A DNA stretch of 48,151 bases from Deltaproteobacteria bacterium (GCA_016200645.1 JACQEJ010000096.1:1-48151), one strand, 5' to 3'; positions 34,027 through 48,151 are shown, numbered from the stretch's first letter. Program-made: numbers and translations. The notes: a model not told the origin generated them from the letters alone.

Positions 34027-34079
34027 ACCGTAAGTCGTAAGTCGGAAGTAGTTACCACTTACTACTTACAACTTACTGT
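34027..34079. repeat. Mirrored heptamer hairpin (CGTAAGT words) between kinase and regulator genes
   Basis: Left arm cgtaagtcgtaagtcggaagtagt, right arm accacttactacttacaacttactg. Overlaps the kinase stop. Confidence 0.85.
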
Positions 34080-37000
34080 TTTTGTATGCCGCAACCCTGT
34101 CTCCGCCTATCCCCCTGGCTTCTGCCAGCGCCTTGCGGGCCGCTGTCATAAATCCTTCCAGGTTATGGGCATCATCAAGATATGTCGCCACCCCAACGCA
34201 CGCGCTTATCTTTCCTCCGGGCTGGTTTTCCGCATTGTAAAAAGGGTAACTCTCAATAATAGTTTTGAATCTCTTTGCCAGCTGCAGGGCAGGGGATTTT
34301 GGCGTATTGGGGAGGAGTATCGCCAGCTCATCCCTCCCGTATCTCACTGCCGTATCATAACCCCGGAGTGTCTTTTTTATCAGCTCCGCTGTCTTTCTCA
34401 GCACGGCATTGCCGTGAAACTCTCCATTTCTGCCGATATACCCAGGAAGGTCGTCTATAGCTATCATCAAGAGGGAGCATGATTGTTTGTATCTGTCCAC
34501 CCTCTTTATCTCCTGACCCAGCCTGATATTCAGATAACGGTGATTAAAAAGCCCGGTAATCTCATCCACCAGTCCCGCCCTTTTCGGGTAGAGGTATTCC
34601 AGCTCCCTTATCTGCTCTACCAGATATTCTTTTGAGAAAGAGCCCCGCTGGATAACCCGGTCAATGTATCCCATAACCTTAAGCCTTTCGTCAATCTCCA
34701 TCTCCTTTTCAGTCAGGAGAAATACAGGTATTCCATGGGTTGCCGGGGTGGTTTTTAATTTATGTATGATATCAAAACTGCTGATGCCGTCGTCCAGGCC
34801 GTTAAACATTATATCAATGATGATAATATCCGGTTTGGCAACCAGGGCAAGCTCAATGCCTTCCCCCCCGCTCTTCACGCTTGATACGGAAAACCCTTCG
34901 ACTTCTAATGTTGAGGTTAAAAGTTTTACCATCTCCTCATCTTTCTCTATCAGGAGGATGCTGGCGGGTTGTCTCGATTTTCTGAACATGGGTCTGAATT
35001 CATTGAGCCTTTGAATAAGCCTGGCGCCGTCCACAGGTTTTATGAGATAATCCGCCGCGCCGAGGACAAAACCAAGCTCTTTGTTATCTATGATTGAATT
35101 TATGATGACAGGAATATCTTTTGTCTCCTCGCCGCTCTTTAATGTCTGCAGCACCTCCCAGCCGTCTTTGTTGGGGAGCATGATATCAAGGGTTATGGCA
35201 AAGGGCTTTAACACCCGCGCCTTCTTAACGGCGTCATTTCCGTCAAAGGCATGGGCAACAGAGTAGCCTGCCTTTACCAGATGGATGGTGATAAGCTCGG
35301 ATGTGGGAGGGTCATCCTCCACCACCAGCACCAGAGGCGCATTTGCTTTACCATCACACCAACCAGGTTGGTGTGATGGTAAATCCTGCAAATGCCCCTC
35401 AACAACCGGCAGAGGATGGCTGATGGCAGAGGCTTTAGGCTGAGATCCTTGAAAAGCATCGGAGGCGGCCATCGGCAGGACAAAGCCGAAGGTAGAACCC
35501 TGACCGAACCGGCTTTCAGCCCATATCATCCCGCCGTGGAGCTCCACCAGTCTTTTGGTCAGCGCAAGGCCTAGTCCCAGCCCCTCGTGCCTTCTGGAAT
35601 AACTCCCGTCCACCTGTTCAAACTCCTCAAAGAGCCGTTCCATATCATTCGGTTTTATACCGATGCCGGTATCAATAACTGAAATCTTTAGCCATGAAGC
35701 CGGAAACGGCGGACTGGCTGCAGAAAAGGATTTTCCCGATCCTCCGCTTCCTGCTTCCCACATCCCGGCTTGAAGAATAACTTTGCCATTCTGAGGGGTA
35801 AATTTGATTGCATTGCTTAAAAGATTGTAGAGTATCTGCTTGAATTTTATCCCGTCTGCCGTTATCTCCGGCAGGTCCGGGTTTAATTGTAATTCAAGGG
35901 TTACCCCATGTTTATTAGCCAGCGGCTGCACAATGCCCAGCACTTCATTCACGATGGCTGAAAGGGGGAAAGTGGAATAATCCAGGGTCATCTTGCCCGC
36001 CTCTATTTTTGCGATATCCAGGATATTATTGATAAGCTGCAGGAGATGCCTGCCTGATGTCAGGACATTATTTATATATCTCGCCTGTTTATCATTCAGG
36101 CTGCCAAAGGTATCGGTCAAGAGAATCTCTGAAAAACCTAAGATAGAATTGAGCGGTGTTCTCAACTCATGGCTCATATTGGTGATAAACTGGTTTTTGA
36201 CCTTGTCCGACCTTTCCAGTTGTTTATTGGCCTTCTCCAACTCCATTGTCCTTTCCAGTATCCTCTCCTCGAGCCTGTCGTTAATCTCTTTCAGCTCCCT
36301 GTTCTTTTTATCTATTTCGAGCCGTATCTTTTTTTCTTCCGTTATATCCTTGCTGATGCCAACGGTTCCGATCACCTTTCCCGTCCAATTGCCCAGCTGG
36401 GAAAGGGTAAGGCTTATGTCAACGATCCTCCCGTCCTTTGCCACAAGCTGGGTTTCATAATTGGAGATACTATCTTCCTTTTCCAGCTTGCTCAGTATGT
36501 TATTCCTTTCATCCCTGTTGCGGTACAGTGTGGATACAGCTCTGCCGATGACCTCATCTCTCCTATATCCAAGAATTGTTTCTGCCCCCCGGTTAAATTC
36601 AACAATCTTTCCCTCGGTATCGGTAGTGATGATGACATCAGCCGAGTCATTTAAGACATTTTTCAGATAATCCTTTGCCTCAAGGAGGGCGTCGTTTTTA
36701 TCCTCCAATTCTTTCAGAAGCTGAAATTTTTCTATGGCAAAGGTGGCCTGGGCTCCGAGCAGACTCAGGAAAGATATTTCGTTTGAGGTAAACCTGCGTG
36801 GTTTAAAATCATCTATGTAGAGGATGCCGATGATGCGGCTGTTGGCAAGAAGCGGTATGGCGATGAGAGACCTTATGCCTTCATCAAGCATGAGCGGGTT
36901 ATTGAACAGAGGCTCTTTTTTTATATCAGATATGACAACGGGCTTTCTTGCGCCGAGGATGTGGCTGGTCATGCCGTTTGGCCTTGCCTTCCATCTGTCA

Positions 37001-37548
37001 ACCTCAAGAAATTTTTGAGAAAGGCCTTTGCTGGCCGCAATCCTTAACTCTCCGGAGCCTGCGTCGTACAGCGCAATGCTTCCTGCGGGCGCATTTACAA
37101 ACTCGGTGGATTTCTTTATTATGATATCCAATACATCTTCCAGATGGTGGGCGGAGGCAAGTATTACACCGATATTATATAGCTCCTTTAACTCATTTAC
37201 ATTTTTATTTAAATCTTCCTGATCCTTTTTAAGTCTGCTTAAAAGCTCCCATACAAGCTTTGCGCTCATCCCCTCTACAATTTCCGCCTTAAGCCTTCTC
37301 TTTTTTCTGATACCCTTTGAGACGGCATCGCTGCCGGTAACATTAATGACGATATCTATATCTTTTATCTTGAGAAGTTCGTTGTAATCTTTTGCGGCGG
37401 GTATATTGAAATGTCTTGCCAGTTTTATCCCTGGGGCCTTTTCATCTTTATCAGCGATGCCGATCACCTCAATATCAGGCATATCTTGTAAAAGGGCAAG
37501 CAATGCATAACCGCCCTTGCCTGCGCCTATGATAGCTATCTTTTTCAT
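34066..37548 (-). CDS. Multidomain sensor: Rossmann-like N-domain, GAF, PAS, HisKA, HATPase_c, two receiver domains, degenerate GGDEF
   Basis: IAIIGAGKGG N-terminus. H-box MSHELRTPLNS. DTGIGI and GLGLGLA ATPase boxes. Receiver domains LVVEDD..LDIMLPNKDG and ILLIEKDEE. C-terminal RGYDTAVRYGRDELAILL in place of GGDEF; 1160 aa. Confidence 0.85.
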   Translation of the reverse strand: MKKIAIIGAGKGGYALLALLQDMPDIEVIGIADKDEKAPGIKLARHFNIPAAKDYNELLKIKDIDIVINVTGSDAVSKGIRKKRRLKAEIVEGMSAKLVWELLSRLKKDQEDLNKNVNELKELYNIGVILASAHHLEDVLDIIIKKSTEFVNAPAGSIALYDAGSGELRIAASKGLSQKFLEVDRWKARPNGMTSHILGARKPVVISDIKKEPLFNNPLMLDEGIRSLIAIPLLANSRIIGILYIDDFKPRRFTSNEISFLSLLGAQATFAIEKFQLLKELEDKNDALLEAKDYLKNVLNDSADVIITTDTEGKIVEFNRGAETILGYRRDEVIGRAVSTLYRNRDERNNILSKLEKEDSISNYETQLVAKDGRIVDISLTLSQLGNWTGKVIGTVGISKDITEEKKIRLEIDKKNRELKEINDRLEERILERTMELEKANKQLERSDKVKNQFITNMSHELRTPLNSILGFSEILLTDTFGSLNDKQARYINNVLTSGRHLLQLINNILDIAKIEAGKMTLDYSTFPLSAIVNEVLGIVQPLANKHGVTLELQLNPDLPEITADGIKFKQILYNLLSNAIKFTPQNGKVILQAGMWEAGSGGSGKSFSAASPPFPASWLKISVIDTGIGIKPNDMERLFEEFEQVDGSYSRRHEGLGLGLALTKRLVELHGGMIWAESRFGQGSTFGFVLPMAASDAFQGSQPKASAISHPLPVVEGHLQDLPSHQPGWCDGKANAPLVLVVEDDPPTSELITIHLVKAGYSVAHAFDGNDAVKKARVLKPFAITLDIMLPNKDGWEVLQTLKSGEETKDIPVIINSIIDNKELGFVLGAADYLIKPVDGARLIQRLNEFRPMFRKSRQPASILLIEKDEEMVKLLTSTLEVEGFSVSSVKSGGEGIELALVAKPDIIIIDIMFNGLDDGISSFDIIHKLKTTPATHGIPVFLLTEKEMEIDERLKVMGYIDRVIQRGSFSKEYLVEQIRELEYLYPKRAGLVDEITGLFNHRYLNIRLGQEIKRVDRYKQSCSLLMIAIDDLPGYIGRNGEFHGNAVLRKTAELIKKTLRGYDTAVRYGRDELAILLPNTPKSPALQLAKRFKTIIESYPFYNAENQPGGKISACVGVATYLDDAHNLEGFMTAARKALAEARGIGGDRVAAYKNSKL
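35347..35383. repeat. Perfect palindrome related to family P1 (CACACCAA..TTGGTGTG core), in frame in the kinase linker
   Basis: tttaccatcacaccaaccaggttggtgtgatggtaaa. Encodes LPSHQPGWCDGK between the ATPase domain and the first receiver. Confidence 0.85.
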
Positions 37549-37551
37549 CCG

Positions 37552-37845
37552 TCAGGCCTCTTTTACCCCGTTGCGCTCGTCTATTCTCTGCTGGAAGAGA
37601 CGGGTTGCGAGTTGCCAGTTGCGAGTTCTTACCCGCAACCCGTAACCCGCAACTTTCAACCCCTTCTCGTTCAAAACAACCATATCGTTTGTGTCAGCAA
37701 GAAAATTTTTATGGCAAAACAAATTTTGCAGTGCTTCTTTACCCGACCCCAGTGCCTTCGTATTTTGCATTGCAAGGCAGGTTTCCAGAGACTTCATTGC
37801 AGCACGTTCAGTGGGGTCTTGGCTCAGGGAAATTTTGATCCACAC
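37552..37845 (-). CDS. Hypothetical protein (doubtful); partly encoded by a repeat hairpin
   Basis: 97-codon ORF ending 3 nt before the kinase start. No recognisable motif. Codons KVAGYGLRVRTRNWQLAT come from hairpin 37601-37654. Confidence 0.3.
   Translation of the reverse strand: MWIKISLSQDPTERAAMKSLETCLAMQNTKALGSGKEALQNLFCHKNFLADTNDMVVLNEKGLKVAGYGLRVRTRNWQLATRLFQQRIDERNGVKEA
37601..37654. repeat. Mirrored heptamer hairpin (GTTGCGA words)
   Basis: Left arm gggttgcgagttgccagttgcgagtt, right arm acccgcaacccgtaacccgcaact. Confidence 0.85.
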
Positions 37846-37936
37846 TGCCGTCCTAATGGTGCTGTGCTAATGTGTTTTGCCATAAAAATTTTCTTGCTGA
37901 CACAAAGGATTTATATTTCTCAAAAAATTTTAACAA

Positions 37937-38725
37937 TTATCCTCTATGGGTGTCAAGGTGAAATCTTTTCTTTAATTCACGGAGAATCATGTTTGCATCC
38001 TCGTTCAGTTTATTCGCCGATTTCAGATTTTCAGAATCGCCTTTGCCAAAAACATACGCTGCGTATAAGCGCGTAGCTTTTGATTTGAGCGATATAGCCT
38101 TTTTCAGCATTTGATGCCATTCTGCCCTTGCTTTTGGGGGTTCTATGGAATTGAGCATCTGAATCATTATTACATAATGCTGGCGAAGTTTCTTCAGTTT
38201 TTCAGGATTCAACCGCGCGGTTCTTTTCATGCTTATCATTTTCGATATATCGTTTGTCCTCTTGCTGATGAACATTGCCTCCCTTATTATTTCAGGAATT
38301 TTTGTTGTAAATTTTTGCTCGTCAAAAACTACCGGCGCTTGTTCTTTTGGATTGGATAAAAGCACGGCTGCCTGAAGCCTCACGCGGTAGAGCCTTTCCT
38401 TATCTTCCTTGCCTTCGTTTAATATCTTGTATGTCTTTACATAACCCTTGCATTTTGCGACTATCTCATCTTTTACCGCCGCGTAACTCTCCACTTCCGT
38501 CTCTGCATTTACAAATACCCCTTTTGCCTGCTCCACTGCAATCCTCAGTCCGTCATCAATAGCAGACCTCCTTGCATCGGCTACATCGCCTTTGATGGTT
38601 CCAACGCCGTCCGCTGTTACGGTAATGGCCTCATCTTCTCCGCTGCTTTCTTGCTCTACACCATAGACAGTCAATGAGCATAAATTCATAAACACAAATA
38701 AGGAAAAAACAAATAATCTTTTCAT
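37937..38725 (-). CDS. Secreted hypothetical protein with N-terminal signal peptide
   Basis: MKRLFVFSLFVFMNLCSLTVYG hydrophobic leader; 262 aa. No family confidently recognised. Confidence 0.65.
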   Translation of the reverse strand: MKRLFVFSLFVFMNLCSLTVYGVEQESSGEDEAITVTADGVGTIKGDVADARRSAIDDGLRIAVEQAKGVFVNAETEVESYAAVKDEIVAKCKGYVKTYKILNEGKEDKERLYRVRLQAAVLLSNPKEQAPVVFDEQKFTTKIPEIIREAMFISKRTNDISKMISMKRTARLNPEKLKKLRQHYVIMIQMLNSIEPPKARAEWHQMLKKAISLKSKATRLYAAYVFGKGDSENLKSANKLNEDANMILRELKKRFHLDTHRG

Positions 38726-39011
38726 ACATTACCCTCCCTGATTTTTTTATTAGCATTTTATCTCTTTTTCGGCAGTAATTGCCAGCGCTATTTTTGAGCG
38801 GCCTACAAACAGTATGCTCCTACGGAGCAAAAGACAAAAAGCCATATCAAAGCCTCGTAAGATGTTGAAAATTGAGAATTGTTTTTTTCTATGCTTATCA
38901 TTTCAACTTTTTTACGAAAGAGCCCTAATATCTTAATTATATTAGGCCTTTTTACTTATTTAATAATTGTTAAGTTTGCAAGTTAAGATATTTCTGTGGC
39001 AAACTTTTATC

Positions 39012-39040
39012 TTGACAAATATACTAAAGTATTATACAAG
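39012..39040 (+). promoter_or_regulatory. Possible promoter for the cysM block
   Basis: TTGACA 39012-39017. The -10 is ambiguous: TATACA with a 15-nt spacer, or TACAAG with 17 nt. Confidence 0.3.
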
Positions 39041-39061
39041 AGTAAAAGACTCAACTTTTCA

Positions 39062-39091
39062 CCCCCACACCAAAAGATTTTGGTGTGGGGG
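39062..39091. repeat. Palindromic element family P1 in the cysM 5' leader
   Basis: cccccacaccaaaagattttggtgtggggg, about 30 nt upstream of the cysM ATG. Confidence 0.9.
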
Positions 39092-39119
39092 ATTCGCTTA
39101 ATCCGGGAGATAAAAAAAT

Positions 39120-40073
39120 ATGGGCAGGCATCCTGCTTTTGATTCACAAAAAGTTATATGGGATTTAAGGCAGCCGCGGCAAACTATCGTTGAAATGGTC
39201 GGCAATACGCCGCTGGTTAAGATAAACAGGATTACCAAACACCTCCCGGAATCGGTAGAGATTTACGCAAAGGTTGAGGCGTATAATCCAGGCGGGTCTG
39301 TAAAAGACAGGGCTGCCAAGCGGATGATTGAGGATGCGGAAAAGAGCGGCAGGCTTACAAAGGATAAGATAATCCTTGATTCAACATCCGGCAACACCGG
39401 GATTGCATACGCATGGATCGGCGCGGTAAAGGGTTACGGCGTTGAGCTGGTGGTGCCTCAAAATGTGAGCGAAGAGAGGAAGAAGATACTCAGGGCATTC
39501 GGCGCAAAGGTGGTATTTTCAAATCCTCTGGAGGGTTCGGACGGCGCTATAAGGCTTGCATGGAAACTCTATGTAGACAATCCGGATAAATACTGCAAGC
39601 TTGACCAGTATAATAACCCATCCAACCCTCAGGCCCATTATGATACAACAGGCCCAGAAATCATAGAGCAGACGGACGGCAGAATCACCCATTTTGTGGC
39701 AAGCATTGGAACCAGCGGCACTATCATGGGCACGGGGAGGAGAATGAAGGAATATAATCCTGCCATACAGGTGATACAGGTGGAACCTGCAACCCCTCTC
39801 CACGGTCTGGAAGGATTAAAGCATATGGCTACCTCCATTGTCCCGGGCATATATCATCCGGAAAAATTGGACGGCAAGGTATCCGCGCCAACGGAAGAGT
39901 CGTATGACATGGCAAAGAGGCTTGCGCGGGAGGAAGGGCTTTTTGTGGGCCAGTCGTCCGGCGCCGCCATGTGGGGCGCCCTGGAGGCGGCAAAGAATCT
40001 GAAGGAGGGTCTTATCGTGGTTTTATTCCCCGACGGGGGAGACAGGTATCTTTCTACGAGGCTGTGGGAGTAA
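39120..40073 (+). CDS. cysM: Cysteine synthase, CysM-like PLP enzyme
   Basis: NPGGSVKDRAA (PLP lysine), STSGNTGIAYAW and GTSGTIMG motifs; 317 aa. Confidence 0.85.
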   Translation: MGRHPAFDSQKVIWDLRQPRQTIVEMVGNTPLVKINRITKHLPESVEIYAKVEAYNPGGSVKDRAAKRMIEDAEKSGRLTKDKIILDSTSGNTGIAYAWIGAVKGYGVELVVPQNVSEERKKILRAFGAKVVFSNPLEGSDGAIRLAWKLYVDNPDKYCKLDQYNNPSNPQAHYDTTGPEIIEQTDGRITHFVASIGTSGTIMGTGRRMKEYNPAIQVIQVEPATPLHGLEGLKHMATSIVPGIYHPEKLDGKVSAPTEESYDMAKRLAREEGLFVGQSSGAAMWGALEAAKNLKEGLIVVLFPDGGDRYLSTRLWE

Positions 40074-40153
40074 AACAGTCTAAAAGTTGTTAGTCTACAA
40101 GCCTACAAGTTTTAAAACTTTTAGTCTAACGACTTGTAGGCTCTTAGGCTGTA
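40072..40153. repeat. 82-nt structured element, copy 1 (upstream of the JAMM gene)
   Basis: aaaacagtctaaaagttgttagtctacaagcctacaagttttaaaacttttagtctaacgacttgtaggc... Near-identical to 40610-40692. Confidence 0.9.
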
Positions 40154-40160
40154 TTTAATT

Positions 40161-40622
40161 ATGCTTTCTTTTCCTCAAAATATTTACAACGAAATAATCA
40201 ACCATGCCAAAGAGACGTATCCCTACGAGGCGTGCGGCGCATTGGCGGGAAAACAAAAACAAGGGTCAGGGCGGGTGCCCTCTGGGCGCGGTCAAGGGTC
40301 AAGAACCGAAAAGGATGTTTTGAAATTTTATAGTATGGAGAATATCAACAAGGACAGGGCGAATGACCGGTATGAGATAAATCCTAAAGAATTATTGAAG
40401 ATTGAAAAAGAGGCAAAAGCAAACGGTCTGCAGGTAATTGGTTTCTATCATTCCCATCCCGATCACCCTGACAGGCCTTCGGCCTTGGACAAGGAAAGGG
40501 CATGGCCATTGTATTCGTATGTAATTATTGCCGTTCATAACGGAAGAGATGTTTCCGTAAAGTCCTGGACATTTGAAGATGAGAGAGAACCTTTTAGAGA
40601 AGAGGAGGTAAAAACAGTCTAA
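40161..40622 (+). CDS. mec: JAMM/MPN+ metallopeptidase (Mec-like)
   Basis: EACG..., HSHPDHPDRPSALD (JAMM HxHx7Sx2D motif). 153 aa, including a repeat-derived insertion. Confidence 0.8.
   Translation: MLSFPQNIYNEIINHAKETYPYEACGALAGKQKQGSGRVPSGRGQGSRTEKDVLKFYSMENINKDRANDRYEINPKELLKIEKEAKANGLQVIGFYHSHPDHPDRPSALDKERAWPLYSYVIIAVHNGRDVSVKSWTFEDEREPFREEEVKTV
40272..40291. repeat. Family P3 core 20-mer, in frame inside the JAMM gene
   Basis: cgggtgccctctgggcgcgg is the exact reverse complement of 30384-30403. It is flanked by GGTCAAG-type words. The insert encodes about QGSGRVPSGRGQGS. Confidence 0.9.
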
Positions 40623-40692
40623 AAGTTGTTAGTCTACAAGACTACGAGTTTTAAAACTTTTAGTCTAACGACTTGTAGACTTTTAGTCTGTA
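40610..40692. repeat. 82-nt structured element, copy 2 (downstream of the JAMM gene)
   Basis: About 6 differences from copy 1 by eye. Supplies the last JAMM codons and the stop (aaaacagtctaa). Confidence 0.9.
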
Positions 40693-40693
40693 G

Positions 40694-41521
40694 TTGGCTA
40701 TGAACTTCACCGAAGAACAGATAGAGCGATACTCAAGACATATAATTCTTCCGGAGGTGGGGGGCAAAGGCCAGGCGGAGCTTCTTAAGTCAAAGGTCTT
40801 TGTGCTGGGCGCTGGCGGGCTTGGCTCGCCGGCGCTCTTGTATCTTGCCGCTGCGGGCGTGGGAACCATCGGCATAGCCGATGGCGACTGCGTTGATTTA
40901 TCTAACCTGCAAAGGCAGATAATCCATGATACGGAAAAGGTCGGCACGCACAAGGCCGTATCTGCAAAAAAGTCCATTGAGGCCCTGAATCCTGATGTCA
41001 AGGTTGTAACCTACAAGGAGAGGCTTAATACAGATAACATAAGAGGCATCATAAGAGATTACGATGTGCTTCTGGACGGAAGCGACAATTTTCCTACACG
41101 ATATTTGATGAACGATGCGGCGTTTTTTGAAAAAAAGACGCTGATATCAGGGAGTATGTTCAGGTTTGACGGGCAGGCGACCATATTCAAACCGCATGAA
41201 GGCCAGCCGTGCTATCGGTGCCTTTATCCGGAGCCGCCGCCAAAAGGCCTTGTGCCAAGCTGTCAGGAGGCGGGGGTTTTAGGGGCCCTGGCAGGTGTGG
41301 TTGGAGTCATACAGGCAGTGGAAACGATAAAAGAACTTTTGGGGATTGGCAACACACTGGCAGGCCATCTTCTTATTTTTGACGCCCTGGGCATGAACTT
41401 CAGAAAGGTCAAGGTGAGGAGAGACCCGGAATGCGCCTTGTGCAGCGAAAAAGCAATCATTAAAGAGCTTATTGCTTACGAAGAGGCGTGTGAGATACAA
41501 GCGGCGAAGTGTGGGGCCTAA
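40694..41521 (+). CDS. moeB: MoeB/ThiF-family E1-like adenylyltransferase
   Basis: RYSRHIILPEVG, LGAGGLGSP nucleotide loop, CYRC and CALC zinc pairs. 275 aa, no rhodanese domain. Confidence 0.85.
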   Translation: MAMNFTEEQIERYSRHIILPEVGGKGQAELLKSKVFVLGAGGLGSPALLYLAAAGVGTIGIADGDCVDLSNLQRQIIHDTEKVGTHKAVSAKKSIEALNPDVKVVTYKERLNTDNIRGIIRDYDVLLDGSDNFPTRYLMNDAAFFEKKTLISGSMFRFDGQATIFKPHEGQPCYRCLYPEPPPKGLVPSCQEAGVLGALAGVVGVIQAVETIKELLGIGNTLAGHLLIFDALGMNFRKVKVRRDPECALCSEKAIIKELIAYEEACEIQAAKCGA

Positions 41522-41525
41522 GAAT

Positions 41526-41641
41526 ACAGGCAAGGGGCGATAGGCAAAGAAATTCTAAATTCTAAACTCAAAATTTTAAATTTGAAATTTGTAATTTGGA
41601 TATTAGAATTGCTAATCCTATAGCCCATAGCCTATAGCCTA
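41526..41641. repeat. Two-tier mirrored element: outer GGCAA(G/T)(G/A)GG / CCTATAGCC words, inner AATTCTA-type heptamers
   Basis: acaggcaaggggcgataggcaa..aattctaaattctaaactcaaaattttaaatttgaaatttgtaatttgg..ttagaatt..cctatagcccatagcctatagcc. Confidence 0.85.
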
Positions 41642-41652
41642 TTTTGATTTCT

Positions 41653-42891
41653 ATGAAACAAACAAAGACATACCTCCACAACCCCGGTTATTTGAAGATT
41701 GACCTTATGCTCAAAGGCATCAGGGTTGATAAAGAGGTTCTTAAAAAAGCAAACATGGATAAATGCCGCAATCTTTTTGATGTTGCGTGCGGTATAGATG
41801 TTATCCTGCCGCACAATACATGGGTAACAGTCCCGTATATTGAAGACTTTACCAAAGATTCGCCTTATGAGCTTATGGAAAGGGATGGAAGATTTTTTAT
41901 AACCCATGGCGATGAATCGGTTCAGGTATCAGTAGTTCCAACGCCGGAGTTCTATACATTGAAAACAACCACGGGCATTCAATTATCCAGGATAGGCCTT
42001 GTCCACGGCGGATATGTGGCGATAACACCCGCGACGCAGTGCGACTTCTTTAATAAGGCCATAGAATGCAGATATTGCGCGGGGAATCTTGATATCTATA
42101 GCAATAAAGGGAGGGTTTATAGCGTTGAAGATGTATTGGAGACCGTCGAGGCCGCGTATAAAGAAGGAAAGGCGGAGATTGTCTATATATCCATAGGTTT
42201 TTCAGATACCCCTGACGGCGGCATAGAGTTCTTGAAGCCGTATATACAGGCGATAAAAAAACACTTTAATACCCTTGTTGCCGTGGAAGCCCTCCCACCA
42301 AAGGAAAACAGATGGGTAGATGAAACTTACGCAGTAGGCGCTGATTCTGTCTTATATAACCTGGAGATATTCAATCCGAAATTATTTGATGAGATATGCC
42401 CCGGCAGGGCAACGCTTATTGGGAGGGAAAGGTATCTGGACGCCCTGCGATACGCAACAACCATATTCCCGAACGGCACCGTAGCATCCCATCTTATTGT
42501 CGGACTCGAACCGATAGAGTCAACCATGTCAGGCATAGATTATTTTACCAACATCGGTGTGGTGCCTATACTGCCTATATACAGGCCGTCCTTAGGGGCA
42601 AAACTTTCTCAATATAAGATGCCTGCCACTAAAGATATTGCCCCGCTGTATGGTCATCTCTACAGGGCGGTTACCGCAAATAAGATAAATACAACCTGGG
42701 TCAGGGATATAAGCATTGTGACAACGCCGCTGGAGGGAAGATTCTTTGTCGGCGACGAGGCCAGGATGAAGACATGGATGCAGAATTTTTATAAATCAAG
42801 GTTGGGATTAAAGGCAGCATGGAGTCTCGCAACCCTGCGAAGGAAGCTGAAGGTCAAGGTAGGGGAATCGTCAGCGCACCGGGACAAATAA
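41653..42891 (+). CDS. Radical-SAM-like TIM-barrel protein with non-canonical CX8CX2C motif and an N-terminal domain of unknown function
   Basis: CDFFNKAIECRYC (42040-42078). GADSVLYNLEIF and SHLIVGLEP resemble BioB/ThiH-type strands. ATG at 41653 is preferred over the TTG at 41644, which abuts the repeat. Confidence 0.6.
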   Translation: MKQTKTYLHNPGYLKIDLMLKGIRVDKEVLKKANMDKCRNLFDVACGIDVILPHNTWVTVPYIEDFTKDSPYELMERDGRFFITHGDESVQVSVVPTPEFYTLKTTTGIQLSRIGLVHGGYVAITPATQCDFFNKAIECRYCAGNLDIYSNKGRVYSVEDVLETVEAAYKEGKAEIVYISIGFSDTPDGGIEFLKPYIQAIKKHFNTLVAVEALPPKENRWVDETYAVGADSVLYNLEIFNPKLFDEICPGRATLIGRERYLDALRYATTIFPNGTVASHLIVGLEPIESTMSGIDYFTNIGVVPILPIYRPSLGAKLSQYKMPATKDIAPLYGHLYRAVTANKINTTWVRDISIVTTPLEGRFFVGDEARMKTWMQNFYKSRLGLKAAWSLATLRRKLKVKVGESSAHRDK

Positions 42892-42906
42892 GGATGGGGA
42901 TATGAG

Positions 42907-43010
42907 CCCCGTTAGACCTAAAAGCAAGAGGCTTTGCTTCAATCGATTGGTACGGAGAACAGTTTAAAAGTGAAGTGGGCAGCAATTATTTTAAAGGAGG
43001 TCTAACGGGG
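42907..43010 (+). promoter_or_regulatory. Long-range 13-bp helix sequestering the RBS/start of the permease gene
   Basis: ccccgttagacct (42907-42919) is perfectly complementary to aggtctaacgggg (42998-43010). The latter overlaps the GGAGG SD and the first base of the GTG start. Confidence 0.45.
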
Positions 43011-44437
43011 TGAGAATAGAGATAGACCGGCGCCCCATCTGGCTCATCATTATCTTAAGAAGTTTTAGGCCTATATTTTTTCTGACCATAGGGCTCATCT
43101 TCTTTTACCTGATCAACCTTCCTACACCGGACGGCTTGACAATCCAGGGACAGCGGGCAATTGCTCTGTTTACCGTATGCCTCATTTTATGGGTTACCGG
43201 CATGCTGCCGCTTGCCATAACCAGTCTTCTGGCGATTGTAACAGTTCCTCTGCTGGGGATACTGGATAAGAAAGAGACCTATGCGCTGTTCGGCAATGAG
43301 GCGGTCTTTTTTATCTTAGGGGCATTTATACTTTCCGGCGCCGTGATGCATTCGGGGCTGTCCGGCCGCATAGCTCTGGCGATAATGAACAGATTTGGAG
43401 GCACCCCGAAGGGGCTGCTTGCTTCCATATTCCTCCTGGCTTCGGCTTTGTCATTTTTCATGTCAGAACATGCGGTAGCGGCTATGCTCTTTCCCATTGT
43501 GCTGGACATTGCAAAGGGTTTGAATCTGAGGCCCGGCAGATCAAATTATGCAAAGTCTCTTTTTCTTGCCCTCGCGTGGGGGTGTATTATCGGAGGCGTT
43601 GCGACATTTCTCGGAGGGGCGCGGGTTCCGCTTGCCGTCGGTATGCTGAAGGAGGCAACAGGCATAACCATTGATTTCCTGGAATATACCGTCATCGTGT
43701 TCCCGACTGTGGTGATGCTGCTCGTGATAGGTTATCTTGGGCTGACAAGATTTTTCCCCCCGGATATAGAAGACATGCATCTGGCAAAAACCGTATTTGA
43801 AAGAAAGATGAAAGAGATGGGAAAGATAGGATATCTGGAATATGCAGTAGGCGCTGTCATGGCGGCAACAATACTTTTCTGGCTGTTTTTCGGCAGAAGC
43901 CTGGGCATAGCGAATATAGCCATTGTCTCGGTGGTCGGGCTTTTCATATTAAAGCTGGTTAGATGGAAGGACATTGAGGAGTATGTGAACTGGGGCATAA
44001 TCCTGATGTACGGCGGCGCAATAACATTGGGCGCGGCAATGGAAAAGTCCGGGGCGGCGGCATGGATGGCCAATGCGGCAATCGGAAATGGCATAAGCAG
44101 CCCTCTTGTAGTTATAGCAATATTTTCTCTTTTGACAATTCTCTTAACGGAAGGCATGAGCAACGCCGCTGTCATAGCAATCCTGCTGCCCGTCGGCATT
44201 GGCATGGCCTCCCGATTCAATATGGAGCCGAGGCTTATTACCTATGCCATAGCAGTTCCGGCAGGACTGGCATTTTGTTTTCCAATGTCAACGCCTGCAA
44301 ATGCCATTGCTGTATCATCAGGTTACATAACGACAAAGGATATGGCAAAGGCAGGCATTGTCATGATGATTTTGGCATGGCTTGTATTTAATCTGACGGC
44401 GCGATTTTATTGGCCGATAATAGGCATCAGGCTATAG
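43010..44437 (+). CDS. DASS/SLC13-type anion permease (ArsB/NhaD superfamily), putative sulfate/anion symporter
   Basis: 475 aa, about 12 hydrophobic segments. GTG start 9 nt after GGAGG. The sulfate role is inferred only from neighbours. Confidence 0.75.
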   Translation: MRIEIDRRPIWLIIILRSFRPIFFLTIGLIFFYLINLPTPDGLTIQGQRAIALFTVCLILWVTGMLPLAITSLLAIVTVPLLGILDKKETYALFGNEAVFFILGAFILSGAVMHSGLSGRIALAIMNRFGGTPKGLLASIFLLASALSFFMSEHAVAAMLFPIVLDIAKGLNLRPGRSNYAKSLFLALAWGCIIGGVATFLGGARVPLAVGMLKEATGITIDFLEYTVIVFPTVVMLLVIGYLGLTRFFPPDIEDMHLAKTVFERKMKEMGKIGYLEYAVGAVMAATILFWLFFGRSLGIANIAIVSVVGLFILKLVRWKDIEEYVNWGIILMYGGAITLGAAMEKSGAAAWMANAAIGNGISSPLVVIAIFSLLTILLTEGMSNAAVIAILLPVGIGMASRFNMEPRLITYAIAVPAGLAFCFPMSTPANAIAVSSGYITTKDMAKAGIVMMILAWLVFNLTARFYWPIIGIRL

Positions 44438-44493
44438 GCAATAGGCGATGGGCAATAGGAAAACCCATAGCCTATAGCCCATTGCCAATAGCC
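44417..44493. repeat. Mirrored heptamer hairpin (GGCAATA / CCTATAG words), overlaps the permease stop
   Basis: Left arm ggctataggcaataggcgatgggcaatagg, right arm cccatagcctatagcccattgccaatagcc. Confidence 0.9.
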
Positions 44494-44505
44494 AATTCTT
44501 TTATT

Positions 44506-44970
44506 ATGAAAAACATACTTCTCATACTCTCAACCTCAAGAACCTCGCAGGATGCGATTGAGTATGCCGTGGGTCTCGCAAAAAAGGAGAAGGCAAAGCT
44601 TGTCGTCCTCTACATAATCGAGACCGAGCTTACCAATGAGGTCTTTGATAAATTTACCGACATTGGCTTTATCGGCGACAAACCGTCAACAGAGCTTACC
44701 GAGGCCATTATGCGGGAATACCGCCAGCGCGGCTACGAGGAGATGGGAAAGGTTCAGATAAGGGCAATGGAAGAAAATGTTGATTTCGACGCAGTTACAA
44801 CGCAGGGGGATTTTGTTGAAAAGGCCGTAGAGACAATTGAGCGGTATAAGATTGATACTGCCGTTGCGATTAAACGGAAGCGCTCCGCATTCTGGAAGTA
44901 TTTCTCAAAATCCATGGTTGATGAACTCATAGAGCAAGCGCCGTGCAAGGTGGAGGTGTTTGAGGAATAA
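44506..44970 (+). CDS. Universal stress protein family
   Basis: MKNILLILSTSRTSQDAIEYAVGLAKKEKAKLVVLYIIE. The ATG at 44506 is preferred because the longer ORF start (44410) lies in the repeat. Confidence 0.75.
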   Translation: MKNILLILSTSRTSQDAIEYAVGLAKKEKAKLVVLYIIETELTNEVFDKFTDIGFIGDKPSTELTEAIMREYRQRGYEEMGKVQIRAMEENVDFDAVTTQGDFVEKAVETIERYKIDTAVAIKRKRSAFWKYFSKSMVDELIEQAPCKVEVFEE

Positions 44971-44975
44971 AAAAT

Positions 44976-45053
44976 ACAGGCAATAGGCTATAGGCAATGG
45001 GTTAGAGACCAAAGTTTTTTTCCTATCACTTATAGCCTCTTGCCTATAGCCTG
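44976..45053. repeat. Mirrored heptamer hairpin (GGCAATA / CCTATAG words)
   Basis: Left arm acaggcaataggctataggcaatggg, right arm cctatcacttatagcctcttgcctatagcctg. Confidence 0.9.
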
Positions 45054-45070
45054 CATTTAAAGGAGACAAC

Positions 45071-45682
45071 ATGACCCAACAAAAAGCTACCAACATCAAA
45101 TGGCATCACGGAAAGATTACGAAAGAAGACAGGATAAAGCTGATGAAGCAGAAAGGAGTAACCATCTGGCTCACCGGTCTGTCCGGCTCAGGCAAATCAA
45201 CCATTGCGGTTGAACTTGAGCATGCCCTCCTGGAAAACGGTCATCAGGCGTATATACTGGATGGCGATAATATCCGCCACGGCCTGAATAAAAATCTCGG
45301 CTTTTCGCCGGAAAACCGCTCTGAAAATATACGGCGCATCGGCGAAGTGGCAAAGCTATTTACCGATGCAAATATCATTACTATAACAGCATTCATATCC
45401 CCATACAGACAGGACAGGGAAAATGCCAGGAAACTCCAGAAGGATGGTGAGTTTATAGAGATATATGTGAAGTGTCCGTTGGAAGTGTGCGAGCAGAGAG
45501 ATACGAAAGGGTTGTATAAAAAGGCGCGGGCTGGCGAAGTCAAAGAATTTACCGGCATATCAGCGCCGTATGAAGAGCCGTTAAATCCTGAAATAACCAT
45601 TGACACATCAAAGCTGTCTGTTGAGGAATCGACAAAGGAGATAATAGGCTATCTGGAGAAGAAGGGGTATGTGAAGTTTTAA
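45071..45682 (+). CDS. cysC: Adenylylsulfate (APS) kinase
   Basis: [15 protein letters not shown]-loop, [17 protein letters not shown] and FISPYR motifs; 203 aa. Confidence 0.95.
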
Positions 45683-45685
45683 GAC

Positions 45686-45755
45686 GGGTTAAGGTTGAGG
45701 TTAAGGTTAAGAAAAAATCTTTTACTCAACCTCAACCTTAACCTCAGCCTTTTTT
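45686..45755 (+). terminator. Mirrored hexamer hairpin (GGTTAA words) followed by a T-run; terminator-like
   Basis: Left arm gggttaaggttgaggttaaggttaag, right arm ctcaacctcaaccttaacctcagcc, then tttttt. Lies between cysC and cysH. Confidence 0.6.
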
Positions 45756-45759
45756 AATT

Positions 45760-46536
45760 ATGAAAATAGATGATATTACAAAGAACACACTTGACAAACT
45801 CAATGCCATGCCTGCTGAAGGGCTTATCACATGGGCATTTGAAAACTTTGGGGCAAGATGCGCCATCGGCACGAGTTTTCAGTTAACCGGCACGGTAATT
45901 GTAGACATAGCCGGCAGGCATTTTAAGAAATTCAGGGTGTTTACCATTGATACGCTTCGGCTCCATCCTGAAACATACGAGGCAATCAAGGCTTCGGAAA
46001 AAAAATATGGTTTGACTATTGAAAGATTTACGCCGAATGAGGGCACATTAAAGAGCATGATTGAAAGATTCGGCGAGTATCTCTTTTTCATGGATAAGGC
46101 AAAGCAGGAATACTGCTGCTTTGTGAGAAAGGTTGAGCCGAACAGGCGAGCGCTTAAAACCGTTGATGTCTGGATAACGGGTTTAAGAAAAGACCAGTCG
46201 GATTACAGAAAGACTGTGCCAAAGGCGTCTCTTATCGAAGAAGACGGAAGGAAGATTCTCAAGCTCGCTCCCCTGGCGGACTGGGGCATGGAAGAGATAT
46301 GGCGGCATATACGGGAGAACAATCTCCCCTATAACAAACTCTTTGACATGGATTACGACAGCATAGGCTGCGTCATATGCTCAACACCGCTGGTCAAGGG
46401 CGAACCGCCCCGCTCCGGCAGGTGGAGATGGTTCAGCAAGGTGGATGAAAAAAAGGAGTGCGGGATACATACAAATACAGGCAATAGGCAAGAGGCAATA
46501 GGCAATAGAAAATTAAAAAATCAAAAGTCAAAATGA
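45760..46536 (+). CDS. cysH: Phosphoadenosine/adenosine phosphosulfate reductase, Fe-S (APS-reductase-like) type
   Basis: CC pair (EYCCFVRKVEP), CxxC (GCVICS), SGRWRW and ECGIH motifs. The C-terminal 21 codons are repeat-encoded. Confidence 0.9.
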   Translation: MKIDDITKNTLDKLNAMPAEGLITWAFENFGARCAIGTSFQLTGTVIVDIAGRHFKKFRVFTIDTLRLHPETYEAIKASEKKYGLTIERFTPNEGTLKSMIERFGEYLFFMDKAKQEYCCFVRKVEPNRRALKTVDVWITGLRKDQSDYRKTVPKASLIEEDGRKILKLAPLADWGMEEIWRHIRENNLPYNKLFDMDYDSIGCVICSTPLVKGEPPRSGRWRWFSKVDEKKECGIHTNTGNRQEAIGNRKLKNQKSK

Positions 46537-46626
46537 CAAATTAAAATTTAAAAATAACATTCCTTAATTTTGATATTTGATTTTTCATCTTTGATTTTAC
46601 TTGCCTATAGCCCATAGCCTATCGCC
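46477..46626. repeat. Two-tier mirrored element (outer GGCAATA words, inner A/T-rich heptamers), then T-run and RBS of sat
   Basis: acaggcaataggcaagaggcaataggcaatag..aatcaaaagtcaaaatgacaaattaaaattt..ttaattttgatatttgatttttcatctttgatttt..cttgcctatagcccatagcctatcgcc. Confidence 0.9.
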
Positions 46627-46648
46627 ATTTTTTAAGGAGGCATAAAGA

Positions 46649-47809
46649 ATGGTAGGTTTAATCGAGCCGCATGGCGGCAAACTTGTCAACAGGATTCTGG
46701 AAGGAAAAGAAAGGGAAGATCTTGCGGAAAAGGCGCAAAAACTAAAAAAGGTGCATCTCAATGAGAGAGAGATCTCCGATATTGAGATGATCGCAATAGG
46801 CGCTTTCAGCCCGCTGGAAGGGTTCATGAAAAAGGATGACTACCACAGCGTCATGGACAATATGAAGCTGTCCGATGGCCTTCCATGGACAATACCGATA
46901 ACCTTATCGGTCACAAAGGATGAGGCAAAGAATCTCAAAGAAGGGGAAGAAGTAAGCCTCGTCAACAAGGAAGGCGAGATGCTGGCGGTTCTCCATATTG
47001 AAGAAAAATTCAGTCACGATAAAGAAAAAGAAGCTGTTCAGATCTACGGCACAAAGGATATGGCTCACCCCGGGGTGGCAAAGGTTTTTGAGATGGGCGA
47101 TACGCTTCTTGGAGGCAGTGTATCGGTCATACACAGGGTTAAGCAGGAAAACTTTTTAAAATATAGACTTGATCCAAAAGAAACCCGTCAGCTTTTTAAG
47201 GAAAAGGGATGGAAGAGGGTTGTCGGCTTTCAAACAAGAAACCCGATTCATAGGGCGCACGAATATATCCAGAAGTGCGCACTGGAGGTGGTAGACGGGC
47301 TGATGATTCATCCTATTGTCGGCGAAACAAAAGGAGACGATGTGCCTGCTGCTGTGCGTGTGAAGTGCTATGAGGTTTTGCTGGAAAATTATTATCCCAA
47401 AGACAGGACCGTGCTTGTTGTCAATCCTGCGGCCATGAGATACGCAGGCCCAAAAGAGGCGATATTCCATGCGCTCATAAGGAAAAACTACGGCTGCACC
47501 CACTTTATTGTCGGGAGAGACCATGCGGGCGTGGGCAACTACTACGGCACCTTTGATGCGCATTACATATTTGACGAGTTTGACCCTCTGGAGATCGGCA
47601 TAACACCGATGTTTTTCGACCACACCTTCTACTGTAAAAAATGCGAAGGCATGGCGTCGTATAAAAGCTGCCCGCACGATTCCAGCCACCATGTCACCCT
47701 TTCCGGCACAAAGGTAAGGGAGATGCTGCGGGCAGGAACGATGCCCCCGCACGAGTTTTCAAGGCCAGAAGTCGCAAAGGTTTTGATAGAGGCGATGAGG
47801 GCAACATAA
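46649..47809 (+). CDS. sat: Sulfate adenylyltransferase (ATP sulfurylase)
   Basis: [11 protein letters not shown] and GRDHAGVG motifs; 386 aa. Confidence 0.95.
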
Positions 47810-47894
47810 TGGCGGAGGGTGAGGGACTCGAACCCCCAAGGGCGTTAGCCCGCTGGTTTTCAAGACCAGTGACTTACCATTAGCCTAACCCTCC
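47810..47894 (-). tRNA. tRNA-Ser (anticodon UGA) with long variable arm
   Basis: Hand-folded: GGAGGGT acceptor, CTGGT-CTTGAAA-ACCAG anticodon arm, variable arm CGGGCTAACGCCCTT, GGGGG-TTCGAGT-CCCTC T arm, encoded CCA. 85 nt. Abuts the sat stop. Confidence 0.9.
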
Positions 47895-47928
47895 TGTGAG
47901 ACAGTTATTAGTGGTTAATTGTTAGTAA

Positions 47929-47958
47929 ACCCCGTTACTTGAGTTCAAGTAACGGGGT
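47929..47958. repeat. Near-perfect 14-bp palindromic hairpin
   Basis: accccgttacttga-gt-tcaagtaacggggt. Shares taacggggtg with the permease leader at 43003-43012. Confidence 0.7.
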
Positions 47959-48044
47959 GAAAAACGTTTTGTATATATAGGATTGTTCTAAGACTTTAAC
48001 AAAACATACAACTCTCTGTCAATACAATTACCTTCTCGCTCATA

Positions 48045-48073
48045 TTGACCCATGCCTGTTTTCTTGCTACTAT
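48045..48073 (+). promoter_or_regulatory. Sigma70-like promoter for a gene starting at the window edge
   Basis: TTGACC 48045-48050, 17-nt spacer, TACTAT 48068-48073. The leader ends with aaaggaggtctaacgagg (48134-48151), almost identical to the permease leader 42993-43010. Confidence 0.45.
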
Positions 48074-48151
48074 CCTTTCATTATCATGCAACGAGGTTCT
48101 TTAAAGAAAGTTTTTCAAGAATTCTAACAGACGAAAGGAGGTCTAACGAGG

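Follow-up and report, generated by a model that had tools for sequence, protein, structure and literature searches.

The spacers between co-directional genes on a 48,151-nt contig (JACQEJ010000096.1; complete, and hereafter called the window) of a metagenome-assembled genome (MAG) labelled Deltaproteobacteria (GCA_016200645.1) are for the most part occupied by hairpins in which a tandem array of a 6-8-nt word is followed by a loop and then by an array of the complementary word. The repeats are real, far from random in their occurrence and present throughout the lineage, and comparison with related genomes shows that whole elements appear, vanish or are replaced at a given junction. They turn over fast and are taken to be DNA elements and not conserved structured RNAs, and carry no strand- or position-specific RNA signature. 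The explanation to which we give about an even chance is that they are palindromic simple-sequence elements acting at the DNA level, prone to slippage, copied between loci and essentially selfish or neutral, much like the repetitive extragenic palindromic (REP) elements. The stretch between 44417 and 45053 consists of two such hairpins bracketing the 154-aa universal-stress-protein gene usp (44506-44970). The first (44420-44497) reads ATAGGCA TCAGGCT ATAGGCA ATAGGCG ATGGGCA ATAGG in its 5' arm, aaaa between the arms and CCCATAG CCTATAG CCCATTG CCAATAG CC in its 3' arm; the sulfate-symporter gene ends within the 5' arm (stop codon at 44435-44437), and usp starts 8 nt past the 3' arm. The second (44975-45052) reads AGGCAAT AGGCTAT AGGCAAT GGG and, after the loop, CCTATCA CTTATAG CCTCTTG CCTATAG CCT.

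Abundance, placement and anatomy of the paired arrays

Tandem Repeats Finder returned 41 rows of period 6-8 in the window, compared with a mean of 2.1 (maximum 8) in 50 dinucleotide shuffles, and period 7 was the commonest (28 of 51 non-overlapping arrays). Hairpins and arrays were also recovered by an inverted-repeat scan, and 19 hairpins of the type word array, loop, complementary array were counted. The elements of the window have their word arrayed once more on the opposite strand, in convergent orientation and at most ~150 nt away. If only those arrays are counted whose complementary partner is no more than 150 nt distant, the window has 3.1 per 10 kb, the Brocadiales loci (334 kb), which are without the elements, have 0.06 per 10 kb, and loci from other phyla (747 kb) have 0.09 per 10 kb; these control loci (1.08 Mb in all) belong to unrelated lineages and were retrieved with the same protein. 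The vocabulary comprises at least 12 unrelated words in 48 kb, and the units are highly degenerate.

A hairpin is present in 18 of the 23 co-directional spacers of at least 40 nt (gene map from Pfam), and in none of the three divergent spacers or the single convergent spacer of the window (hypergeometric P ~0.007 versus co-directional). The host operons include thrS-infC-rpmI-rplT-pheST and the run usp, cysC, cysH, sat, and the palindromic, transcribed and inter-cistronic placement is that of REP elements. An initial annotation, made from the sequence alone, had proposed the tandem-word architecture, a limited vocabulary recurring between loci, an occurrence within operons, a usual lack of a T-run and a host that is not cyanobacterial; all of this was borne out, and every locus that it listed was recovered. 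Some of its assignments need refinement. Most of the loci are spacers as claimed, but the hairpin at 864-960 and the solo array at 31499-31530 lie inside open reading frames (ORFs). The GGTTAAG loci exist, although the one at 45686 has period 6 (GGTTRA) and the one at 10893 is an imperfect 8-nt version. The GTAGAAG array at 23134 is likewise present but has essentially one arm, while the GGCAATA loci at 41525 and 46473 proved to be nested, with outer GGCAATA arms around inner hairpins of AT-rich words.

The arms mostly hold ~3-5 degenerate units (per-arm counts 3-8, with ~8 on the longest arm). Element length is 44-161 nt, and the folding energy of isolated elements is roughly -15 to -50 kcal/mol. 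The gene upstream has its stop codon within the 5' arm or 0-5 nt ahead of it in 14 of 17 elements, and the distance between the 3' edge and the next start codon is 0-18 nt in 14 of 18. Four genes terminate within an array, and the cysH frame extends 64 nt into the 46473-46633 element. Stop codons, C-terminal tails and start sites are in these cases set by repeats, which bears on the annotation of operons. Between the element and the downstream gene a Shine-Dalgarno sequence is lacking in 10 of 15 cases, against 9 of 22 other genes, a difference that is not significant. The multi-locus 5'-arm words GGTTRAG, GGCTGAAGG, GGTAGAAGG and ATAGGCA hold Shine-Dalgarno-like AAGG, GAGG or TAGG motifs, whereas the 3'-arm words are similar to the 16S 3' tail (ACCTC, CCTTA). 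Many words (8 of 14, roughly counted) include a stop triplet, so that an array of period 7 has stops in all three frames within three units.

A T-rich tail (at least five T within the first 8 nt past the stem) follows 3 of 18 elements, and a consensus terminator scan of 30000-48151 flagged none of the elements in that stretch and found no excess over shuffles; these results do not support canonical intrinsic terminators. No element matched a covariance model of Rfam 15 at the gathering threshold, the only matches in the window being three tRNAs.

Turnover, copying and slippage among related genomes

The window between 39.1 and 47.8 kb is syntenic with loci L012 (GWC2_42_11), L086, L087 and L088 (the latter two from GCA_041643075), L089 (GCA_016219285), and L090 and L091 (both from RIFCSPLOWO2_02_44_9). 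L012 shows 70-80% nucleotide identity to the window across aligned blocks, and the cysC products of L086, L087 and L088 are 94-96% identical to that of the window. In these last three loci the symporter and usp genes overlap (ATGA), as do cysH and sat, while usp/cysC and cysC/cysH are separated by 3-28 nt (3 nt for cysC/cysH in L086), and no hairpin is found at any of these four junctions. L012 is empty at both junctions that hold the 44420 and 44975 elements in the window (e.g. GAGTAAAAAAAGGAGATGATATG), the usp/cysC junction being empty in L087 as well. L089 and L090 do carry tandem-word hairpins, but with other words or in other places than the window. L089 has a GGTTRA hairpin between PALP and JAB, and L090 has one between cysH and sat; in L090 a GGCAATA element also follows sat and a hairpin of GAAAATG words occupies cysC/cysH. 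In the spacer between thiF and the radical-SAM gene, the window and L089 (6290-6385) share orthologous inner AAATTTG words, and the outer GGCAATA arms consist of 3-4 units in the window but of 1-2 units, which are degenerate, in L089. Long imperfect palindromes without tandem structure were also observed in L012 (12470-12600) and L089 (9190-9310 and 9775-9990) at junctions that hold hairpins in the window, which makes these operon junctions look like places where palindromic DNA lands in general.

Elements of the same family recur at junctions that are not orthologous. The window at 44417-44500 is identical in 58 of 73 positions to L090 6140-6235, which follows sat, and the likeness takes in both the GGAAAAC loop and the irregular ATAGCCTATAGCCCATTGCC of the 3' arm; 41520-41545 agrees with L090 6140-6165 in 25 of 26 positions. 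Likewise, 45683-45760 matches 4785-4865 of L089, at the non-orthologous PALP/JAB junction, in 61 of 76 positions. Copies that are nearly identical lie on either side of the JAB gene, both in the window (67/73) and, independently and with another word, in L012 (106/113). Such elements share an idiosyncratic unit order and loop and have therefore been copied between loci; independent slippage would not recreate the shared idiosyncrasies. At the 3' end of the symporter gene, the native ATGATAGGGATTAAGATATGA of L088 and the ATAATAGGCATCAGGCTATAG of the window are of equal length and have the stop codon at the same position, and the window sequence differs near codons 3-7 by substitutions through which the array unit AGGCTATAG is recreated. 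Thus the array either begins in word-like native sequence or homogenises it. The empty sites of L086 (ACAGGCTATA) and L087 (AAGGTCAA) likewise hold lone word-like units; as potential targets of copying these are suggestive only.

Variation at a finer scale is apparent from eight independently assembled Logan contigs from six runs (SRR12113409-14), which match 15.6 kb of the window with few substitutions and two indels, each of exactly 7 nt and each within one arm of one array. One contig (L005) has an extra ATAGGCT unit in the 5' arm only of the 44975-45052 element, and another (L002) has one 7-nt unit fewer in the 46473-46633 element, altering the tail of CysH (258 to 244 aa); both variants still fold. 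The gain and loss of units one arm at a time points to replication slippage, and one-unit slippage segregates within a population. For several of the contigs an end falls right within a hairpin loop (44457, 45716 and 27464/27484), a behaviour that is expected of de Bruijn assemblers at true palindromes and that bears on metagenome assembly in general. The same behaviour is the one point in favour of regarding the hairpins as products of assembly or collapse of low-complexity sequence, a possibility raised in the initial annotation together with that of a pattern confined to the window. However, the eight assemblies agree base for base save for the two 7-nt unit indels, and the same architecture is present in related MAGs and in metagenomes of other projects, so that the probability of an artefact is practically nil.

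Strand, polarity and competing explanations

Of 18 elements, 9 are more stable as sense than as antisense transcripts, and G-U pairs number 26 versus 36 (P = 0.25); selection on the transcript strand was dismissed, as neither stability nor G-U pairing gives a signal in these 18 elements. Compensatory changes between the arms, for which the initial annotation had suggested a test, did not emerge either. In 21 hairpins the observed order of units was no more complementary than when the units of the second arm were permuted (mean z 0.20, Fisher P 0.81), whereas synthetic arms made as exact mirrors and mutated by 0-20% gave a mean z of ~3 and were significant in 18-20 of 21 cases. This test and its power control rule out mirror-copied arms and compensatory evolution. 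The match between arms is at the level of the word, and the arms are therefore two arrays of one word with shared variant types and not base-for-base mirror copies.

These results bear on the view that the hairpins are selected RNA elements, that is, intercistronic stem-loops which stabilise the upstream mRNA, tune operon expression or act as attenuators or terminators, the tandem words being a means of building a register-tolerant stem. Consistent with such a role are the location in transcribed junctions of conserved operons and the absence from the three divergent (promoter) spacers, the high folding stability, the three T-rich tails, the folding of the unit-number variants and the finding that most of the counterparts in Xanthomonas are transcribed (PMC4692102). 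However, the lack of a transcribed-strand bias in stability or G-U pairs, of position-specific compensation between the arms and of any flagged or enriched terminators argues against it. Moreover, close relatives run the same operons with junctions of 0-28 nt and no hairpin, the same junction in sister genomes holds other words or unrelated palindromes, and the same arrays occur inside ORFs. Taken together, a selected RNA function is considered rather unlikely.

In the preferred explanation, that of slippage-prone DNA elements, an element consists of paired, opposed arrays of a 6-8-nt word (usually 7 nt, with 3-5 units per arm), the G- or purine-rich array being placed 5'. Copying may be aided by word-level homology at the target, by template switching or gene conversion, or equally by an unseen transposase. 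A self-complementary insert would be tolerated within an operon in that it folds away in the mRNA and keeps the upstream stop codon near the downstream start, an idea with which the overlapping or tightly coupled state of the same junctions in the relatives is in agreement, and the purine-rich arm would supply stop codons. A barrier to 3' exonucleases, like that of REP sequences and bacterial interspersed mosaic elements (BIMEs), and an occasional partial terminator are plausible by-products. The same array-forming process would also act within genes, where the survivors would be in-frame solo arrays or hairpins in surface loops.

Several observations weigh against this explanation, among them the strict polarity of the elements. 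Among 30 hairpins that together use more than 12 words, 25 have a 5' arm with more G than C (P = 3e-4), and it is mainly AT-rich inner words that depart from this rule. A scan of metagenomes seeded with one arm (AGGTTGAGGTTAAG) gave 113 matches, of which 25 had a complementary array downstream and none upstream, and for AGGCAATAGGCAAT in IMG/VR contigs the corresponding numbers were seven and none, so that the pooled outside data place the partner array downstream 32 times and upstream never. As a palindrome reads alike on both strands, the polarity is a property of the element, independent of the direction of transcription or replication. It is not predicted by purely neutral slippage, points to some selective or mechanistic constraint, and is the main feature that the preferred explanation leaves unaccounted for. 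It may represent a form of translational hygiene, in which the purine-rich arm, with its stop triplets (UAA, UAG and UGA, all of them U plus purines) and Shine-Dalgarno-like AGG motifs, is kept off the next start codon and a pyrimidine arm beside that start would be inert. Furthermore, GGTTRA hairpins were found on contigs with a GC content of 36-68% (between co-directional ORFs in 12 of the 18 cases that could be resolved), and many of these outside loci hold further word arrays. Unless there is horizontal spread or a common preference for certain words, the occurrence of GGTTRA and GGCAATA over this range of GC content is difficult to account for. The notion that the insert folds away and preserves translational coupling draws on the geometry of the junctions, and the Shine-Dalgarno comparison given above is non-significant. 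Finally, no gene in the window encodes a transposase domain (Pfam), a REP-associated tyrosine transposase (RAYT; a Y1 HUH transposase) included, and no target-site duplication is recognisable between filled and empty junctions, whose flanks are A/T-rich and word-like. We infer the mode of spread only indirectly, because no transposase, target-site duplication or copying machinery was seen.

The lack of a transposase and of evident target-site duplications also counts against an explanation by miniature elements of the miniature inverted-repeat transposable element (MITE), REP or REPIN type, moved in trans by a RAYT, by an HUH enzyme of the IS200-IS605 type or by a targeting insertion sequence (IS). 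Nor is a transposase domain found among the Pfam families listed for genes called in L086-L091, while the more than 12 words would demand many specificities or a recognition of structure only, and the ends of the elements merge into word-like native sequence. Such an origin would fit the dispersed families with shared idiosyncratic sequence at non-orthologous sites, the variable presence among relatives, the other discrete palindromic insertion families in the same window, and the insertion of ISGme8 and ISGme9 at a fixed distance from analogous sites in Geobacter (PMC2700814). Recurrent termini of the form (A)CAGG...CCTG(T) would agree with it as well: AATACAG lies directly 5' of five elements built of three words (23129, 27413, 41523, 44973 and 46474), and CAGG...CCTG closes many metagenomic GGTTRA hairpins. 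The enrichment of AATACAG is weak, however (12 matches versus 4.9 expected, with one of 100 shuffles reaching 12), and as a conserved insertion motif it was dismissed, being in part just the base of the stem. Mobilisation in trans is on the whole judged unlikely.

The strict convergent polarity is also of a kind that a DNA-binding dimer or oligomer would enforce, and two convergent blocks of direct repeats with variable spacing are typical of binding-site arrays. The elements might accordingly be two iteron-like sets of sites for a nucleoid-associated or regulatory protein, comparable to the IHF/HU sites surmised in Geobacter, and a gene of the IHF/HU family is present in the window (23172-23447). 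Yet the at least 12 unrelated words have no common consensus, the units are highly degenerate, the arrays enter coding sequence and sit within ORFs, and words are swapped for others at the same junction in relatives, which makes a binding function very unlikely. Extremely improbable is the formation of G-quadruplexes (G4), as offered for the GGGNATC arrays of Xanthomonas and Nostoc. Although the 5' arms are G-rich with periodic G doublets, and the in-ORF word AAGGGGC has G4-capable runs, most words (GGCAATA, GGTTAAG, GTAGAAG, GCTCATA, AAGTTGC, CGTAAGT) hold only GG or a single G where the canonical form needs four runs of at least three G, and the duplex with the complementary arm is far more stable.

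Among viral contigs, 113 matches to the GGTTRA pattern included no hairpin, and 117 matches to GGCAATA included seven; phage as a vector was dismissed, these hairpins being too few. One GC-rich contig of 43.6 kb that is classed as viral (IMGVR_UViG_3300041809_002110) holds at least seven GGCAATA arrays, several of which form hairpins of the same polarity, and the word is therefore reused far beyond the lineage of the window.

Arrays within genes, neighbouring repeats and known systems

Arrays are also found inside genes (Table 1), where they represent insertions compared with solved homologues, of 15 aa and ~30 aa in the GH57 gene (11-1852). The longer of these inserts is common to several orthologues and varies in length. 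An alignment of GH57 orthologues that are 70-78% identical reveals four hypervariable insertion hotspots across the clade, with peptides that correspond to translated arrays followed by their translated complements (KQEARSKKQEE...LASCLLPLAS, LKAEEKQAEGK...LQPSAFSLI) and lengths that vary widely. This suggests that the hotspots are long-lived in-frame repeat 'cassettes' in surface loops. Addition of three units to one adds 21 nt, which would account for the preference for ~4 copies within ORFs. Essential operons and essential genes thus tolerate such repeat inserts.

Table 1. Positions of the paired-array hairpins and in-gene arrays in the window (strand given for in-gene arrays)
Position	Strand	Element	Location and remarks
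670-739	+	two solo arrays, TGCGGAA x4 and AACTCCC x4.6	in GH57; jointly a 15-aa insert versus PDB 1K1W
864-960	+	hairpin of GGCTGAAG words	inside GH57 reading frame; codes ~30-aa insert between two domains
1349-1518	+	solo arrays, AAGGGGC x4 (1349-1377) and AACTCCC x5 (1484-1518)	in GH57
1853-1925		hairpin of 8-nt words, GTCAGAGA x4 / complement	begins right after GH57 stop codon
3754-3898	-	solo arrays, CAGCCTT x5 (3754-3788) and GGGGCAA x4.4 (3868-3898)	in gatB
10893-10965		imperfect 8-nt-word hairpin, AAAAGACG / TTAACCTY	upstream of accA
11952-12026		hairpin, GCTCATA x4 / TATGAGC-type x4	accA stop codon inside 5' arm
14173-14297		hairpin, ACAGTAA x3 + GGTAGAN x4 / CTACYTN x6-7	overlaps 3' end of pheA-aminotransferase gene
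15328-15356	+	AAGGGGC x4	codons 2-11 of prephenate-dehydrogenase gene (tyrA)
23128-23171		GTAGAAG x4 array, short complementary segment only	entire spacer between IHF/HU gene and MerR gene
25255-25318	-	two adjoining solo arrays, GTCAGGA x4 and AAAACGC x4	variable loop of pheT
25913-25990		hairpin, GGCTGAG x3 / CAGCCTT-type	pheS/pheT junction
27413-27515		composite hairpin, outer GGTTRAG words, inner 8-nt AAAGGNNA types	rpmI/rplT junction; Logan contigs break here
27732-27802		hairpin, AAGTTGC-type x5 / GCAACTT-type x4	infC/rpmI junction
28340-28383		short hairpin, GTGAGCAGT / ACTGCTCAC, running on as ACTGYTC x4 array	overlaps thrS 3' end
31499-31530	-	solo CAGTKAA x4.6 array	in phosphoenolpyruvate-carboxylase gene (ppc)
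34027-34076		hairpin, CGTAAGT x3 / ACTTAC-type x3	histidine-kinase/GGDEF gene to response-regulator gene
37600-37653		hairpin, GTTGCGA x3 / ACCCGCA x3	
40092-40150		hairpin, AGTCTACAAG-type words	upstream of JAB gene; paralogue of 40625-40690
40625-40690		hairpin, second copy of 40092-40150 element	downstream of JAB gene
41525-41640		nested, outer GGCAATA arms, inner AAATTCT/AAATTTG words	thiF/radical-SAM junction
44420-44497		hairpin, GGCAATA family, ~5 ATAGGCA-type units, loop GGAAAACC, ~4 CCTATAG-type units	
44975-45052		hairpin, GGCAATA family, AGGCAAT x3, loop, TATAGCC x3	usp/cysC junction
45686-45751		hairpin, GGTTRA hexamer family	cysC/cysH junction; T6 follows
46473-46633		nested, outer GGCAATA arms (46479-46508 and 46601-46628), inner AT-rich word hairpin (46509-46598)	

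Other kinds of repeat share the window with these elements. A palindrome family of ~39 nt, (TTTA)CCCCCACACC-AAAAnnTTT-GGTGTGGGGG(TTTAC), with the C-rich arm first, has copies at 4592-4620, 10776-10818 (with 10871-10880), 14016-14044 and 39062-39091, of which two are in genes and two intergenic. It is carried in-frame in the essential genes gatB and the pheA-aminotransferase fusion (peptide YPHTKNFGVGV), has a related copy in L090 (~1368-1400) and resembles the Rickettsia palindromic elements (RPEs). In the pheT ORF, a palindrome CCAACCCCCTCGTGCCCCCC-TTTTTCTAAA-GGGGGGACGTGGGGGGTTAG at 25478-25529 codes for a 10-aa insertion (TPHVPPLEKGG...) relative to the PheT of PDB 4p71. A further family, CCCCGTTAGA ... 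AAGGAGG-TCTAACGGGG-TGA, spans ~105 nt at 42907-43013 (~80 nt in L087) and carries its own Shine-Dalgarno sequence, supplying the GTG start region of the symporter gene in the window and the usp start in L087. It also occurs at 48142-48151 and 47931-47960 and in L087 (1695-1778) and L090 (~1444), and its presence in L087 and absence from L088, which is of the same species, constitutes a presence/absence polymorphism within one species.

The longest stretch of the window without any array of period 6-8 (15357-23134, 7.8 kb) holds an NTase/HEPN pair, an N6/N4 DNA methylase, an unannotated ORF of 449 aa (16301-19498) and the overlapping genes aroA-cmk-ispH. The island carrying the NTase/HEPN pair, the methylase and the 449-aa ORF was probably acquired. 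The cysC gene (45071-45682) encodes an adenosine 5'-phosphosulfate kinase with 85-92% protein identity to enzymes of the anammox Planctomycetota (Brocadia, Kuenenia, Scalindua), while its flanking genes are syntenic only with MAGs of 'Deltaproteobacteria'/Thermodesulfobacteriota; this likeness could be the result of horizontal transfer between the groups or of extreme conservation. A search with cysC had at first pointed to Brocadiales as the source lineage, which was discarded in view of the synteny and the source record.

Several known systems share features with the paired arrays, among them the REP, BIME and REPIN sequences (Bertels & Rainey 2011, PMC3116915). REP elements are short extragenic palindromes which occur in hundreds per genome at operon junctions or after stop codons, and they protect mRNA 3' ends and cause partial termination. 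Like REP, BIME and REPIN sequences, the elements described here are palindromes in transcribed junctions with turnover between relatives, but a REP is a single conserved imperfect palindrome without tandem words and is tied to a RAYT, whereas many words and unit slippage are seen in the window. The at least 12 unrelated words of the window do not constitute a conserved single family with a REP-type 5' tetranucleotide motif. RPEs, described by Ogata and colleagues in 2000, are said to insert in-frame at surface-exposed positions of proteins and also between genes. The occurrence of palindromic repeats both in-frame in genes and between them is thus common to both systems, although RPEs are discrete elements of ~100-150 bp in few sequence families and lack tandem-word arrays.

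Among heptamer repeats, the short tandemly repeated repetitive (STRR) sequences of heterocystous cyanobacteria, reportedly described by Mazel and colleagues in 1990, are said to be direct arrays of heptanucleotides, mostly intergenic and with several words per genome. The words of STRR1-3 are CCCCAGT, TTGGTCA and CAACAGT. They have in common with the window that heptanucleotide arrays are dispersed over the genome, while the host and the words are different, and only ACTGTTA/ACTGTTC of the window (complement NAACAGT) resembles STRR3. In Nostoc PCC 7120, pairing as inverted repeats is limited to a few STRRs (PMC4692102). The TAACTGA repeats of marine Beggiatoaceae and some cyanobacteria, with one inverted case in 170 sets (MacGregor 2015, PMC4679880), are likewise abundant intergenic heptamers beside translation signals and span distant lineages, yet they consist of a single word, are nearly always direct and lie immediately upstream of start codons. 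The over-representation of heptamers in bacterial genomes has been noted since 2007, and Mrazek, as quoted in two later papers (PMC4679880, PMC4692102), considered heptamers the commonest long simple sequence repeats and ascribed them to polymerase slippage.

The initial annotation had implied that mirrored arrays of this type are novel, which is contradicted by prior cases in Xanthomonas (PMC4692102) and Geobacter metallireducens (PMC2700814). Genomes of Xanthomonas campestris and X. axonopodis each contain ~185 GGGAATC arrays, most often of four units (Rehm et al. 2015, PLoS One 10:e0144275; PMC4692102), of which 70-75 convergent pairs per genome on opposite strands are capable of forming stem-loops. 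These arrays favour aligned ORFs and the vicinity of stop codons, differ in length between close species and are mostly transcribed (PMC4692102). The likeness to the window extends to heptamer arrays of ~4 units, convergent pairs, spacers of aligned ORFs beside stop codons and variation in length, and also to polarity, the Xanthomonas array upstream of the next ORF being G-rich on the antisense strand (PMC4692102). In contrast, Xanthomonas uses one dominant G4-capable word, which its authors read as a quadruplex, where the window has at least 12 words that are mostly not G4-capable, and the window adds nested composites, a much higher local density and in-frame hairpins inside genes.

In G. 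metallireducens, paired 'global regulator sites' have been described in three classes (1-3) of 7-9-nt words: 4x GTTGCTYN, 3x TCTCCGTS[Y] and 5x MTYCTGA (Aklujkar et al. 2009, BMC Microbiol 9:109; PMC2700814). They form 24 + 21 + 8 = 53 pairs of sites on opposite strands at variable distance, some of them within operons such as proB/proA, and one of the classes has ISGme8 and ISGme9 inserted at a constant distance from its sites. A further repeat, Gmet_H4 (4x the heptanucleotide GGGACCG), occupies 49 intergenic and intragenic places, and all of these classes are absent from G. sulfurreducens (PMC2700814). The presence of several word classes, paired on opposite strands, in part within operons and missing from a sister species, matches the window. 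The Geobacter repeats differ in having other words and in being described in supplementary alignments only; their authors guessed at IHF/HU sites, and polarity, slippage and turnover went unanalysed.

On this comparison, the architecture is one already known from Xanthomonas and Geobacter, and the window is an unusually dense, multi-word case of it, to which the published guesses (G-quadruplexes, IHF/HU sites) are ill-fitting, given its many non-G4 words. A bolder proposal, to which we attach a low probability, is that a word-agnostic process, be it an enzyme or a behaviour of replication and repair, builds and spreads polarity-constrained palindromes of tandem 6-8-nt words, with a G-rich 5' arm, in many unrelated bacteria whose contigs range over 36-68% GC, in operons and in-frame in essential genes, structural self-removal of the insert at the RNA level keeping translational coupling. 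If so, the heptamer repeats of Xanthomonas, Geobacter and cyanobacteria would be facets of one unrecognised genome-shaping class. One-unit slippage, gain and loss at the level of the junction, copying between loci, polarity and word-level matching of the arms are constraints on any mechanism proposed for these systems.

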